Below are positions 3,223 to 50,955 of a DNA stretch of 64,000 bases, piece by piece. The DNA is from a virus, in IMG/VR virus record IMGVR_UViG_3300046779_001735, positions 32,001 to 96,000 of that record; one strand, given 5' to 3'. The notes under the pieces were generated by a model. The model worked only from the letters and a program-made list of their open reading frames with translations, was not told the DNA's origin and searched no databases. Every line of letters begins with the position of its first letter. The first letter of the stretch is position 1. The translations under genes were made by a program, and so were the position numbers.

Positions 3223-3239
3223 CTGGATCAGGAGCAATT

Positions 3240-4001
3240 ATGCACGCAGGCACTCTAGACCAAATGAAACAGGAACTCATCGAATACACACAGCTTCAGC
3301 TGGGTGCCAACATGATTGATGTAGAGCTTGATCCTGCGCACTACGAAGCAGCATATCAAAGAACCATAGGAACCTATAGACAGCGTGCACAAAATGCATA
3401 TGAAGAATGCTATATCTTTATGGAATTGATCACTGATCAGAACGAATATTTTTTGCCGCAAGAAGTGGTGCAGGTCAAACAGATATTCAGAAGAACATTT
3501 GGTATAGCAACCGGGCCATTTAGCTCTGCGTTTGATCCCTTTAGTCAAGCCCAGATGCAGGTGTATCTCATGAACTTCAATCAAAGTGGTGGACTTGCTA
3601 CCTATGATTTTTATACTCAGTATGTGGAACTAGCAGCTAGAATGTTTGGTGGTTTCATTAACTTTACATGGAATCCTGTTACCAAAAAGCTACAACTCAT
3701 ACGTGATCCTAAAGGCACTGGTGAACAAGTGCTACTATGGGTATATCAACTCAAACCTGAAGTTCAACTGCTGCAAGACTATCAAATCAGCCAATGGCTG
3801 CGTGATTACATGGTAGCAGCCAGCAAAATGATGGTAGGCGAAGCACGTGAAAAGTTTGGGACTATTGCTGGTCCGGGCGGTGGTAGTACGCTTAACGGTA
3901 CTGCCATGAAAGCAGAAGCTCAAACACAGATGGATGTCTTGGTGGAACAACTCAAAAACTACATTGATGGATCTCAACCCTTAACCTGGGTAATTGGCTG
4001 A
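3240..4001 (+). CDS. Neck protein (T4 gp13-like head-tail adaptor)
   Basis: LGANMIDVELD N-terminus and EAREKFGTIAGPGGGSTLNG C-terminal motif typical of gp13. Confidence 0.8.
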   Translation: MHAGTLDQMKQELIEYTQLQLGANMIDVELDPAHYEAAYQRTIGTYRQRAQNAYEECYIFMELITDQNEYFLPQEVVQVKQIFRRTFGIATGPFSSAFDPFSQAQMQVYLMNFNQSGGLATYDFYTQYVELAARMFGGFINFTWNPVTKKLQLIRDPKGTGEQVLLWVYQLKPEVQLLQDYQISQWLRDYMVAASKMMVGEAREKFGTIAGPGGGSTLNGTAMKAEAQTQMDVLVEQLKNYIDGSQPLTWVIG

Positions 4002-4046: not shown

Positions 4047-4613
4047 ATGCACTTAATGATTGACATTGAAACTCTAGCCACAGCGCCGGACGCCACAATC
4101 CTCACTGTGGCAGCACAGTCTTTTGATCCTTTAGGACAGGGCTACTACGACTCCTGTTACTATGCAAGGGTGGATCTTGATAGTCAAAGCAATCGCAGCA
4201 TTGAACAAGGTACCATAGAATGGTGGTCCAAACAAAGCGATTTTGCTCGTGAAGAAGCCTTTGCGGAAGACAATCGTGTACCATTGGATCAAGTGCTTGA
4301 TGATCTAGGCAAACTTATATGGAAAAGCAGTGCCATCTGGGCCAACGGTCCTACGTTTGACATGACAATCCTAGAGAATGCCTATAAAAGTTATCAGAAG
4401 CCCTTGCCTTGGCAGTACTACAAAGTCAGAGATTGCCGTACGGTTTACATGCTATGGCCCAATGAAAAATTCAATGATACACCAGTGGCACCAATGTTGA
4501 TTAATAATCAAGCACATCGTCCCGCTAGTCATCATGCTTTGGATGACTGCAAACGACAGATTGATTTGCTACAAGAAACACTCAGGGCCATTGGCATAAA
4601 GGACTTGGTATGA
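4047..4613 (+). CDS. DEDDh 3'-5' exonuclease (DexA/Rv2179c-like)
   Basis: MIDIET, WANGPTFD, RDCRT and HHALDD motifs. Confidence 0.85.
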   Translation: MHLMIDIETLATAPDATILTVAAQSFDPLGQGYYDSCYYARVDLDSQSNRSIEQGTIEWWSKQSDFAREEAFAEDNRVPLDQVLDDLGKLIWKSSAIWANGPTFDMTILENAYKSYQKPLPWQYYKVRDCRTVYMLWPNEKFNDTPVAPMLINNQAHRPASHHALDDCKRQIDLLQETLRAIGIKDLV

Positions 4614-47419: not shown

Positions 47420-47447
47420 AAAAACCCTGCTTTTGTGCAGGGTTTTT
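47420..47447. terminator. Intrinsic terminator (potentially bidirectional)
   Basis: AAAAACCCTGC-TTTTGT-GCAGGGTTTTT. Confidence 0.8.
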
Positions 47448-47452
47448 CATGG

Positions 47453-47481
47453 TTGACCAATAATACCCAATTCGCTATAAT
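47453..47481 (+). promoter_or_regulatory. sigma70-type early promoter
   Basis: TTGACC-17-TATAAT. Confidence 0.8.
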
Positions 47482-47512
47482 ACTGACATACTAACAAAAC
47501 GGAGCAAAAGCA

Positions 47513-48532
47513 ATGTCTACTATTTTAGTTCGCAGCGGTGTGTACCGCAATCAGCCTGTAGTCAACCAAATCTTTACGCTGGTAAAGGGTTTCCAAAGTG
47601 GTCGCAAGGGCGGCTATGTTACAGTAAAATCAGACGGCGTGTTTGGCCCAGAATTTGATGTTGTAAGAATTCGGGTAAACGGAATTGACAGTATTGAATA
47701 CACCGCAGGAGAACCCGTGAGTAGTAATGTATTGGAAATGCCCAAAAGCACCAAGGTAGAGACCGACGAAGAAGTCATGGATCGCATTGAACAGCGTTTC
47801 AATATCCTAGACGACATGACCAAGGCCGCGATAAACGGTGACATACGTGCTATGATTGTACAAGGTCCTCCAGGTGTTGGTAAATCTTATGGTGTTGAGT
47901 TCCAATTAGAAAAGGCCGGCTTATTTGACAAAATGAGCGGCCGCAAGATCAAGTACGAAGTGATCAAAGGCGCTATGACGCCAATTGGCCTGTATGCAAC
48001 ATTGTACCGACACAGTGACCCCAAGAATGTCTTGGTGTTTGATGACTGCGACAGTATTCTGCTTGATGACCTGGCGCTGAACATTCTCAAGGCTGCATTG
48101 GATTCGGGCAAAAAACGTCGTATCCACTGGAATGCTGACTCTGCTCTGCTGCGTCGTGAAGGCATACCAGACAGTTTTGACTTCAAAGGTTCGGTAATTT
48201 TTATTACTAATCTTAAGTTCAACAACATCAAGTCTAAGAAACTGCAAGACCATTTAGAGGCATTACAGAGTCGCTGTCACTTCCTGGATCTCACACTAGA
48301 CACAACACGTGACAAGATCCTGCGTATTAGACAGATCTTTCGCAAGGGCGACTTGTTCCAGGACTACAATTTGACATCCGAACAAGGTGAACAAATTGTG
48401 CAGTTTATGCAAGACAATCATGCTAGACTGCGCGAAATAAGTCTGCGCATGGCGCTGAAGCTTGCGGATCTTACCAAGATATCCAGCAACTGGCAACAGT
48501 TGGCTGAGAGCACTTGCATGCGTCACAGTTGA
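47513..48532 (+). CDS. AAA+ ATPase with an SRC arginine-finger motif
   Basis: GPPGVGKS, LVFDDCD, IFITN, ALQSRC. Confidence 0.8.
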   Translation: MSTILVRSGVYRNQPVVNQIFTLVKGFQSGRKGGYVTVKSDGVFGPEFDVVRIRVNGIDSIEYTAGEPVSSNVLEMPKSTKVETDEEVMDRIEQRFNILDDMTKAAINGDIRAMIVQGPPGVGKSYGVEFQLEKAGLFDKMSGRKIKYEVIKGAMTPIGLYATLYRHSDPKNVLVFDDCDSILLDDLALNILKAALDSGKKRRIHWNADSALLRREGIPDSFDFKGSVIFITNLKFNNIKSKKLQDHLEALQSRCHFLDLTLDTTRDKILRIRQIFRKGDLFQDYNLTSEQGEQIVQFMQDNHARLREISLRMALKLADLTKISSNWQQLAESTCMRHS

Positions 48533-48590
48533 TTGCTCCGTGGGACTCCAGTCCCACATGATTGGGCCCTTGCTCCGGTCCAATCTTTTT
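48533..48590 (+). ncRNA. Candidate structured 3'-UTR/small RNA with CUCC-containing loops
   Basis: Two hairpins (48540-48557, 48560-48585) and TTGCTCCG twice (48533, 48570). Confidence 0.4.
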
Positions 48591-48619
48591 AATAGGCACT
48601 GAATGGTGCCTATTTTTTT
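48591..48619 (+). terminator. Intrinsic terminator
   Basis: AATAGGCAC-TGAATG-GTGCCTATT followed by a T run. Confidence 0.8.
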
Positions 48620-48646
48620 GACTTGTGTAAATAAGCGTCATACAAT
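48618..48646 (+). promoter_or_regulatory. sigma70-type promoter for uvsW (leaderless), with an embedded TAAATA
   Basis: TTGACT-17-TACAAT; ATG 7 nt after the -10 box; TAAATA at 48628-48633. Confidence 0.7.
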
Positions 48647-48652
48647 AGCACA

Positions 48653-50119
48653 ATGCCACAAGCCAAACTAATCATACGCGACGAAGTTAATGTCAAGATT
48701 GAAGGACTAGAACTTGATGCAAAACGCACTCTAGTCAACAAATTCAAATACGATGTGCCCTATGCTAGATATTTGCCAGCTGTAAGGCTAGGACGCTGGG
48801 ACGGCAAGATTGCTTATTTTCAACTAGGCGGCAGTACCTATGTGAATCTACTGCCTGACATCATTCCTGTTCTTGATGAAATGGGTTATGATTTTGAACT
48901 TGATGATCAACGAGAGTATCGTAGAGATTTTGAGTTCGAACGAGTCAATGAAAACACATTTGCGGAATTGACATGGCCTCGCGGACACCCGCAAGCCGGA
49001 CAACCAATACTGCTGCGCGACTATCAAGTTAGTATTATCAATGATTTTTTAACCAATCCGCAGTGTTTGCAAGAAGTAGCCACTGGTGCAGGTAAAACTA
49101 TCATGACCGCGGCTCTGAGTTATTCTGTGTCACCGTATGGGCGCAGCATTATTATTGTGCCCAACAAAAGCCTGGTTACACAAACTGAAAAAGACTATGT
49201 AAATCTTGGACTAGACGTTGGTGTGTACTTTGGAGACCGTAAAGAATTTGGACGTCAACACACTATCTGTACATGGCAAAGTCTCAATGTGCTGTTTAAA
49301 AATACCAAGAACTCTGTAGGCGATGTTACTATACAAGAATTTATTGAAGATGTTGTGTGCGTTATTGTGGACGAAGTACACATGGCCAAAGCAGACGCAC
49401 TGAAAACTCTGCTCACAGGTGTTATGAGTCGCATACCCATACGCTGGGGACTCACAGGCACCATTCCCAAGGAACAGTTTGAAAGTCAAGCACTAAAAGT
49501 CAGTATTGGTCCTATTGTGAGTCACTTGGCTGCTGCTGAACTACAAGAACGTGGTGTGCTGGCACAGTGTCATGTTAACATTGTGCAATTAGTTGATCAT
49601 GTTGAGTACAACAATTATCAAAGCGAATTAAAATATTTGCTAGAAGAATCAGGAAGATTGAATGCTATTGCCAACTTGGTTGCACAGATCAAACAAACTG
49701 GCAACACTCTTATTCTTGTTGATCGCATCGCAGCAGGGCAGGAACTGGTAAATAGATTGCCCAATGCAGTTTTTATTTCAGGGTCCACCAAAGCCGGGGA
49801 CAGACAGGAACATTATGACGAAGTGGCAGAGGCAACAGACAAAATCATCGTCGCTACCTACGGCGTTGCTGCTGTTGGTATCAATATTCCCCGCATTTTT
49901 AATCTTGTTTTACTTGAGCCTGGTAAATCTTTTGTACGAGTTATACAAAGCATTGGGCGGGGAATACGTCGAGCAGAGGACAAAGACTTTGTACAGATCT
50001 GGGACATCACGTCCACCTGCAAGTTCGCCAAACGACATCTAACCAAGCGCAAGGCCTACTATAAGGATGCTCGCTATCCTTTCACACACGAAAAACACGA
50101 ATGGATGACAATAAAATGA
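48653..50119 (+). CDS. uvsW: SF2 DNA helicase (UvsW-like)
   Basis: LRDYQ, ATGAGKT, VDEVH, GLTGT, QSIGRGIR. Confidence 0.9.
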   Translation: MPQAKLIIRDEVNVKIEGLELDAKRTLVNKFKYDVPYARYLPAVRLGRWDGKIAYFQLGGSTYVNLLPDIIPVLDEMGYDFELDDQREYRRDFEFERVNENTFAELTWPRGHPQAGQPILLRDYQVSIINDFLTNPQCLQEVATGAGKTIMTAALSYSVSPYGRSIIIVPNKSLVTQTEKDYVNLGLDVGVYFGDRKEFGRQHTICTWQSLNVLFKNTKNSVGDVTIQEFIEDVVCVIVDEVHMAKADALKTLLTGVMSRIPIRWGLTGTIPKEQFESQALKVSIGPIVSHLAAAELQERGVLAQCHVNIVQLVDHVEYNNYQSELKYLLEESGRLNAIANLVAQIKQTGNTLILVDRIAAGQELVNRLPNAVFISGSTKAGDRQEHYDEVAEATDKIIVATYGVAAVGINIPRIFNLVLLEPGKSFVRVIQSIGRGIRRAEDKDFVQIWDITSTCKFAKRHLTKRKAYYKDARYPFTHEKHEWMTIK

Positions 50120-50955
50120 CAATTCAAGTTAAAGACTTCGCCATCGGTTCAGGGCAACCTTTGTGTGTAATTGCTGGACCCTGTCAAATTCAAAGCCTGG
50201 ATCATGCACTAATGATGGCCACAGCTTTGAAAAAACTCTGTGGAGAACTTGGAGTAAACTTTATATACAAGAGCAGTTTTGACAAAGCCAATCGCACAAG
50301 TATTACAACTCAGCGCGGAGTTGGTATAACTGAAGGATGTGAAATACTGTATGAAGTACAATCACAACTCAAGGTTCCTGTACTAACAGATATACATCTT
50401 CCTAGTCATGCTGACCGTTGTCAGTTCTGGGGTATTGACATGATACAGATACCTGCATTTCTATCCAGGCAAACCGACTTGCTGATAGCCGCAGGTGAAT
50501 CGGGTGCTGCGGTTAATATCAAAAAAGGCCAGTTTATGGCACCAAATGATATTAGCCGGGCAGCAGAAAAAGTTGCCAGCACTGGTAACAAAAGAATATT
50601 ACTTTGCGAACGAGGAGTTACACATGGATACAATAATCTTGTGGTTGACATGCGCAGTCTACCTATCATGGCACGCACTGGCTATCCCGTGGTATTTGAC
50701 TGCACACATAGTGTTCAACAACCAGGAGGACTGGGAACGAGTTCTGGCGGGGATCGCGGGATGGTACCCTACCTCGCCCGAGCAGCAGTGGCCACGGGAT
50801 CAGTAAATGCAGTGTTTATTGAAACACATGAAGATCCAGATTCAGCCCCTAGTGATGGACCAAACATGATTCCATTGAACAAGATGTATGAGTTAATTGC
50901 ACAACTCAAACAATTACACAGGTTGGTTGCAGAGTATGACAAAGGTATAGTATAA
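50116..50955 (+). CDS. kdsA: Kdo-8-phosphate synthase
   Basis: IAGPC, KSSFDKANRTS, QIPAFLSRQTDL, KKGQF, CERG, DCTHSVQ.PG, ETH, SDG; ATGA-coupled to uvsW. Confidence 0.95.
   Translation: MTIQVKDFAIGSGQPLCVIAGPCQIQSLDHALMMATALKKLCGELGVNFIYKSSFDKANRTSITTQRGVGITEGCEILYEVQSQLKVPVLTDIHLPSHADRCQFWGIDMIQIPAFLSRQTDLLIAAGESGAAVNIKKGQFMAPNDISRAAEKVASTGNKRILLCERGVTHGYNNLVVDMRSLPIMARTGYPVVFDCTHSVQQPGGLGTSSGGDRGMVPYLARAAVATGSVNAVFIETHEDPDSAPSDGPNMIPLNKMYELIAQLKQLHRLVAEYDKGIV

Follow-up and report, generated by a model that had tools for sequence, protein, structure and literature searches.

Organization of the ATPase locus

The window, as we call the whole 64,000-nucleotide stretch analyzed here, corresponds to bases 32001 to 96000 of a 156.6-kb IMG/VR record, and the genome that it represents is estimated to be 45% complete. 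The relatives of this genome are contigs of 315 to 364 kb from freshwater and lake samples. The locus under study is that of an AAA+ ATPase gene, which was found in 20 sequencing runs, all of freshwater or lake DNA. Next to none of the locus's words were present in RNA runs of the same study, and a nucleotide search of a phage collection with the locus gave no match. The encoded 339-aa P-loop protein is a homologue of the T4-type nrdC.10 protein, with weak matches to AAA families of Pfam and 35 to 38% identity to nrdC.10 of T4-like phages and to a protein of phage PA5oct. Its predicted structure (pLDDT 86) combines an N-terminal beta domain with a generic AAA+ core, and the solved folds closest to it are those of MoxR/NorQ, RuvB, and clamp-loader subunits; the model takes the assignment as far as a generic AAA+ fold, where it stops. 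The features of the locus, in order along the window, are as follows.

47425-47447, + strand: intrinsic terminator of the upstream unit, CCCTGC-ttttgt-GCAGGG followed by T5, read directly
47453-47481, + strand: predicted sigma70-type ATPase promoter, TTGACC-17-TATAAT, 11 of 12 consensus matches
47499-47507, + strand: ribosome-binding site (RBS) and target site ACGGAGCAA, ending 5 nt before the ATG at 47513; Shine-Dalgarno (SD) core GGAG, followed by a conserved C
47513-48532, + strand: AAA+ ATPase gene, 339 aa, phrog_1250
48533-48541, + strand: anti-RBS copy 1, TTGCTCCGT, directly after the stop codon; single-stranded 5′ of hairpin 1, with its last two bases in the stem
48540-48557, + strand: hairpin 1, GTGGGAC-TCCA-GTCCCAC, 7 bp with a tetraloop; structural
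48560-48585, then T5 to 48590, + strand: hairpin 2, GATTGGGCC-CTTGCTCC-GGTCCAATC, 9 bp with one G-U pair and an 8-nt loop
48570-48576, + strand: anti-RBS copy 2, TTGCTCC, displayed in the 8-nt loop of hairpin 2
48591-48619, + strand: intrinsic terminator, 10-bp stem (48591-48614) and T7; the T run overlaps the next −35 box
48618-48655, + strand: next unit, outside the element; promoter TTGACT-17-TACAAT (48618-48646), ATG 6 nt past the −10 box, leaderless-type UvsW-like helicase gene

The upstream terminator isolates the ATPase unit. With boundaries placed by promoter and terminator motifs, the transcript would start at about 47488 and carry a leader of about 25 nt, and the gene would be a self-contained unit of promoter, leader, open reading frame (ORF), 3′ untranslated region (3′UTR), and terminator. 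An SD-like motif precedes only about half of the ORFs of the window genome, and RBSs of the GGAGC type are few and not enriched (10 of 195 ORFs). A minus-strand gene that would use the complement of GGAGC as its RBS was considered and rejected, as it has no suitable start or ORF.

Several observations concern the surroundings of the unit. The T run of its terminator enters the −35 box of the next promoter (window positions 48613-48623, TTTTTTTGACTT), and the same terminator-promoter junction is present in most related loci. The UvsW-like helicase gene is overlapped at its end by a KdsA-type gene (DAHP_synth_1, 222 bits; 50101-50955). Leaderless-type ORFs, in which a sigma70-type −10 box ends 5 to 6 nt before the ATG, begin at window positions 4047, 48653, 50963, and 52299, and a fifth, weaker case lies past the window end, for a total of 5 among 195 crude ORFs. 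The initial annotation had joined such genes with the 3′ element into a translation-takeover system, an idea that found no support: there are about four to five leaderless-type ORFs, and nothing links them to the element. A homologue of ribosomal protein bS21 (PF01165, 52.8 bits, above the cut-off) is encoded about 24 kb past the window end (G000:C1:120083-120241, + strand), and giant freshwater phages that encode bS21 are available for comparison with the window phage (PMC9723584). No link between the bS21 homologue and the anti-RBS element was found.

A 3′UTR with two sequences complementary to the RBS of its own gene

The ATPase gene ends with TGA at 48530-48532, and both anti-RBS sequences, which we refer to as seeds, fall between this stop codon and the terminator. 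The 92-nt 3′UTR is predicted to fold as exactly three hairpins (minimum free energy of −39.5 kcal/mol, z = −5.5 against shuffled sequences), in agreement with the hairpins, seeds, and terminator that had been described after the ATPase stop in the initial annotation. Copy 1, TTGCTCCGT, was also correctly described there as the exact reverse complement, over 9 nt, of the RBS ACGGAGCAA about 1 kb upstream. Of three CTCC copies noted in the region, the third, in the loop of hairpin 1, is incidental and not conserved: this loop reads TCCA, GCTA, or TTCG in close relatives, in which the stem is either kept or replaced. The pairing available in the window clade is short. Copy 1 offers 9 nt, two of which also belong to the stem of hairpin 1, and copy 2 offers 7 to 8 nt inside an 8-nt loop. 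The search of Rfam with 48530-48620 returned no family, even at E values of up to 10.

Among the 195 crude ORFs of the 156-kb genome, the ATPase gene alone has a 9-nt complement between leader and 3′UTR, the next-best cases being two unrelated 8-mers. On the + strand of the 156 kb there are five copies of TTGCTCC, of which only two, those in the seeds, are intergenic; no comparable arrangement was found in the other 3′UTRs of the window genome. Because this uniqueness is the post hoc top of 195 genes, it is only suggestive on its own, and the weight of the case comes from relatives.

The leader and the 3′UTR covary across relatives

Three scans of viral contigs yielded 127 usable loci in 48 protein clusters (about 88% amino acid identity), with ATPases that span 51 to 100% identity to the window protein. 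Ranking full 90-nt 3′UTRs by RNAduplex energy was uninformative, with terminators and GC-rich seeds dominating the scores, and was replaced by anchored and bulge-tolerant match tests. A sigma70-type promoter lies in 108 of 109 distinct homologue upstream regions, with its −10 box ending 28 to 38 nt before the start codon; given this fixed distance, the architecture of the unit is conserved. Nearly all homologues of 60 to 100% identity have GGAGC 4 to 8 nt upstream of the start codon.

Exact complements of at least 8 nt between leader and 3′UTR are present in 19 of the 48 clusters versus 0 of 48 in each of two coding-sequence controls. When one bulge is allowed, scores of at least 8 are reached in 30 of the 48 clusters versus 4 of 48 in the coding-sequence control. 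In a permutation test on 10 clade representatives, the extension of the match beyond the core amounts to 41 in own pairs versus a mean of 19.8 (P = 3e−5), and swapping partners among the representatives halves the matched extension. We found at least 12 lineage-specific matched pairs of RBS and seed, some of which alter the SD core itself, and between lineages the match ranges from 7 to 13 nt in length. The pairs are given below as leader / 3′UTR.

ACGGAGCAA / TTGCTCCGT: window lineage; also given as GGAGCAA/TTGCTCC
GGAGCAAA / TTTGCTCC
GGAGCGAA / TTCGCTCC
CAGGAGCA(A)TT / AATGCTCCTG
AGGAGCATTC / GAATGCTCCT
TAGGAGC(N)TAGAC / GTCTAGCTCCTA: bulged
TAGGAGC-AGACTA / TAGTCT(A)GCTCCTA: bulged
TAGGAGCTAA / TTAGCTCCTA
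(C)AGGAGCTA / TAGCTCCT(G)
GAG(A)GGGTTGA / TCAACCCCTC (also GAGGGTTGA/TCAACCC(C)TC): clade of 51% identity
GAGGGTTAA / TTAACCCTC (also TTAACCC(C)TC): clade of 51% identity; relative to the GAG(A)GGGTTGA pair, G to A is matched by C to T
GAATGGGAG / CTCCCATTC: clade of 51% identity
GAGAGAG / CTCTCT: clade of 51% identity

Within the clade of 51% identity, the SD core too is altered. Copy 1 is kept as (T)TTGCTCC in loci L002-L007, L197, and L133.

The structures that surround the seed vary in a way that preserves pairing. Hairpin 2 shows G-U to A-U exchanges at two stem positions among L001, L002, and L003, and the equivalent of hairpin 1 in a larger clade has compensatory changes at 6 of 8 pairs. 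In two class alignments, the stems beside the seed carry compensatory changes in 11 of 16 and 12 of 17 predicted pairs, and GCTCC is invariant in both (27 and 28 loci). In every class, the seed is predicted to be unpaired and lies upstream of the terminator. In the window clade, in the large AGGAGCTA clade, and in most of the 51% clade, it flanks a hairpin on the 5′ side; the GTCTAGCTCCTA clade has it in a loop of about 20 nt, and a further group has it in the terminator loop, of 10 to 11 nt. Its distance from the stop codon ranges from 1 to 8 nt in several classes to 25 to 40 nt or a whole ORF in others. Some loci have a small ORF inserted behind the ATPase gene, and there too the module of seed, hairpins, and terminator has its seed ahead of the terminator; such ORFs, of about 30 to 95 aa and of several unrelated kinds, separate the ATPase gene from the module in L169, L171, L185, L054, L150, and L131. 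With a covariance model derived from a single clade, one module and no more was found in each of three complete or near-complete relatives, and model R1 matches the window at 48565-48624, that is, copy 2 and the terminator (E = 1.4e−6). The module is single-copy and tied to the ATPase gene.

Eleven of the 48 clusters are without the module and keep the promoter, from which we conclude that the module is dispensable. Because most of these clusters retain a GGAGC-type RBS, the module alone does not account for conservation of the C that follows GGAG. The distant homologues nrdC.10 of the T4-like phage Acj9 and those of Citrobacter phage Ci1 and Vibrio phage D506 are operonic and without the element. 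In PA5oct, the homologue L082 (MK797984.1, 248735-249889 plus flanks; 38% identical) has the leader GGAGTAGCAT and the 3′ flank ATGCTACTTT, which can form 8 Watson-Crick and 2 G-U pairs covering the SD. PA5oct may show the same logic in a cultured phage.

The initial annotation had proposed that the 3′UTR autoregulates the ATPase, through either a 3′UTR-derived sRNA or long-range 5′-3′ pairing, and had named covariation of loop and RBS among homologues, beforehand, as the check; that covariation is clearly present, and the proposal is strongly supported. Together, the complementarity and the covariation make a reading in which the element targets its own gene well supported, and the seed at the 3′ end of the ATPase mRNA probably pairs with the SD region of that mRNA and limits its translation.

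Matches to distant RBSs

The ATPase RBS is the only partner that is conserved across all lineages. In the window genome, which is only 45% complete, no RBS stands out against the seeds (z of about −3). The neck gene had been named as a second target on account of its RBS GGAGCAAT (3231-3238, 8 nt, before the ATG at 3240). This RBS is present, but in four complete relatives the RBS of the homologue of the ORF at 3240 does not match the seed beyond GGAG. A broader suggestion, that the element silences GGAGC-type RBSs in trans, finds no support for the neck gene, and GGAGC sites are not enriched in the genome. In complete relatives, however, the RBSs of other genes match the seed over 10 to 17 nt. 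The distant matches are as follows.

G001:76668: 205-aa signal-peptide protein; 11 nt, ΔG of about −27 to −30, z = −5.6; best seed match of its genome
G002:42112: CsgF-like protein (PF10614); 17 of 18 nt, ΔG of −26 to −33, z = −5.5; best seed match of its genome
G002:45456: 10 nt
G005:55091: CsgF-like protein; 10 nt

In these complete relatives, late genes for secreted proteins located 40 to 75 kb from the ATPase gene match the seed even better than the ATPase RBS does, which is suggestive of action in trans as well. The candidate distant target genes lie behind putative TAAATA boxes that resemble T4 late promoters. Between two seed classes, the RBS of the CsgF-like gene differs in step with the seed. 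The targets vary, and the CsgF-like RBS of G036 matches the seed over 6 nt only. The 205-aa secreted protein of G001 was rejected as a constant target, since its G004 homologue has an unrelated RBS with no match. In 27 partial contigs that carry the ATPase gene, no CsgF-like gene was found. We consider action in trans on a few late genes likely in some lineages.

The CsgF-like protein (PF10614, 56.8 bits) is encoded in complete relatives at L224 (G005:55091-55531), L225, and L227. In each case, a gene with a lipoprotein signal follows, and there is a TATAAATA-like box in front; the two genes could form a phage-borne, curli-type secretion pair. At the CsgF-like genes L289, L296, L302, and L314 (in G035, G037, G039, and G042), the SD is GGGG and lies in a local CCCCG...CGGGG hairpin, and the ATPase gene of these lineages is without the module. 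Such a local hairpin may sequester the CsgF-like SD in place of a distant seed.

Alternative explanations

If the distant matches are given precedence, the module could essentially be a trans-acting small RNA (sRNA), either released from the ATPase 3′UTR or acting as that 3′UTR, with late mRNAs for secreted or membrane proteins as its main targets; the match to the ATPase RBS would then provide feedback as a secondary function or follow from the sharing of an RBS tag. The layout resembles that of an Hfq-type sRNA, with an unpaired seed, a hairpin, and, after an AUUUUA linker, a terminator ending in a U7-9 tail; the AU-rich linker and long U tail are compatible with an Hfq-dependent sRNA and no proof of one. 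The strength of the matches in G001, G002, and G005, the covariation of the CsgF-like RBS with seed class, and the presence of two seed copies in the window clade also fit such an sRNA. We nevertheless judge it improbable, given that the ATPase RBS alone is conserved as a partner in all lineages, while the distant targets differ between genomes (as in G004 and G036) and the window genome, incomplete as it is, has no standout RBS. A role of the two sites as DNA is less probable still. Co-evolution could also occur in an inverted repeat around the gene that serves recombination or binds a sequence-specific protein, as paired protein-binding sites would covary too, and the long-range helix showed no G-U pairs. 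Because of the lack of G-U pairs, the argument for RNA rests on bulges, location, and hairpins. In a whole clade, the leader half contains a variable extra base (C, A, or G); this half always overlaps the SD, 4 to 8 nt from the start codon, and the other half is invariably found past the final stop codon of the unit and ahead of the terminator, in the unpaired part of a covarying hairpin. The range of matched lengths (7 to 13 nt) and the replacement of G-U by A-U pairs in hairpin 2 of the window's closest relatives likewise speak against DNA sites.

Pairing between the mRNA ends could also have a positive role, and both forms of it have precedents: a loop that protects the mRNA from RNases, as in the 5′/3′UTR interaction of hbs (PMC5737220), and an inert form that is activated later, as in the tac/fbi fold-back of hok mRNA, in which end-to-end pairing keeps the mRNA untranslated (PMC9841398). 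In the classes with the seed 1 to 8 nt past the stop codon, terminating ribosomes would open the pairing, as a positive role would allow, but in other classes the seed is 25 to 40 nt or a whole ORF away. Moreover, the pairing covers the SD itself, which represses translation in tested cases, and a strong terminator follows the seed and would stand in the way of activation by 3′ trimming. The hok system also differs in that fbi pairs with the extreme 5′ end rather than the SD, in its activation by 3′ trimming, and in being a type I toxin system with an antisense RNA. We regard a positive role as very unlikely. The least probable explanation is coincidence, in which CTCC would occur by chance in ordinary tandem terminator hairpins. 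Both hairpin 2, with its T5, and the last hairpin are scored as intrinsic terminators, and one 9-mer match picked from 195 genes would be unremarkable, but neither point accounts for the covariation statistics or for an invariant GCTCC amid variable stems. Plain tandem terminators with nothing conserved beyond structure are argued against by the invariant, unpaired GCTCC-type seed that covaries with the RBS.

Comparison with known systems and a proposed model of autoregulation

The regulatory logic of pairing between a 3′UTR and the RBS of the same message is already known from bacteria, and the literature that we searched yielded no 3′UTR-based regulation of this kind in a phage. The closest parallel is icaR of Staphylococcus aureus, in which an anti-SD sequence in the 3′UTR (UCCCCUG) pairs with the SD of its own mRNA and represses initiation (PMC3868564). 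In both cases, the 3′UTR of a monocistronic mRNA contains an anti-SD sequence, UUGCUCC in the phage, that is complementary to the SD of that mRNA. In the phage, the motif falls within the 3′UTR of the same transcript, as delimited by promoter and terminator motifs, and the complementarity to its own SD has been maintained in evolution. The two elements have no sequence relationship, the one belonging to a bacterium and the other to a phage, and the 3′UTR is about 390 nt in icaR versus about 90 nt here. The icaR pairing creates an RNase III substrate. The phage element, in contrast to icaR, is backed by extensive phylogenetic covariation and has additional candidate targets elsewhere in the genomes of relatives.

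OppZ and CarZ of Vibrio cholerae are autoregulatory sRNAs derived from 3′UTRs, released by RNase E and requiring Hfq (PMC7398697). They resemble the phage element in having a regulator at the mRNA 3′ end that shares the terminator and pairs with a ribosome-binding region of its own unit, which in OppZ and CarZ gives negative feedback. The phage module sits at the transcript end, also when an ORF is inserted, and its target is the first RBS of the unit. The differences are that release by RNase E and a need for Hfq have been demonstrated for OppZ and CarZ, and that the phage target is the RBS of the first, and usually only, cistron. In Bacillus subtilis, anti-SD-like 8-mers located hundreds of nucleotides downstream pair with the RBS, block initiation, and promote decay, and they are depleted from genes (PMC12697547). 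The likeness to the phage element lies in a pyrimidine-rich anti-SD far downstream that pairs with the RBS within one molecule. However, the B. subtilis sequences are synthetic or selected against, while the phage seed is conserved, extends beyond the SD core, and is displayed by dedicated hairpins.

By analogy with icaR, with OppZ and CarZ, and with long-range anti-SD folding, we infer that the pairing represses translation. We propose that the mRNA ends in a riboregulator module, in which an unpaired anti-RBS seed is accompanied by one or two hairpins and by an intrinsic terminator. The seed would base-pair with the SD region of the ATPase message and block binding of the 30S subunit, and the result would be negative autoregulation of the gene, whose message is presumably early because its promoter is of the sigma70 type. 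Of the probability that we give to this autoregulation, a little over half falls to pairing within one molecule (in cis) and the rest to a tail fragment that acts on other copies of the mRNA (in trans). The distal position of the seed suggests a delay: ribosomes could load during transcription, and the RBS would close once the tail, 1 kb downstream, exists or accumulates.

A wider system is possible, and we put it forward tentatively. The giant lake phages may possess a private translational address system, in which a single-copy seed on the tail of the early ATPase transcript co-evolves with an extended RBS tag that is shared by the ATPase gene and, depending on the lineage, a few late genes that encode secreted or envelope proteins, CsgF-like ones among them. 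If this were true, an early transcript would limit its own translation and also time or dose late proteins.

Implications

Tested regulation through bacterial 3′UTRs consists of a handful of cases (icaR, hbs, and OppZ/CarZ), most of which have little phylogenetic support. In the phage, an RNA-RNA contact that would span 1 kb has a dozen independent compensatory solutions, some of which change the SD core, and the element would count among the better comparative cases for control of an RBS from the 3′ end. Because the ATPase unit is a 1.2-kb cassette with a sigma70-type promoter, it can be moved into a laboratory host as it is, and pairs of seed and tag could serve as orthogonal parts for translational control. 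For the phages themselves, our findings suggest that large uncultured phages tune single genes by built-in RNA brakes.
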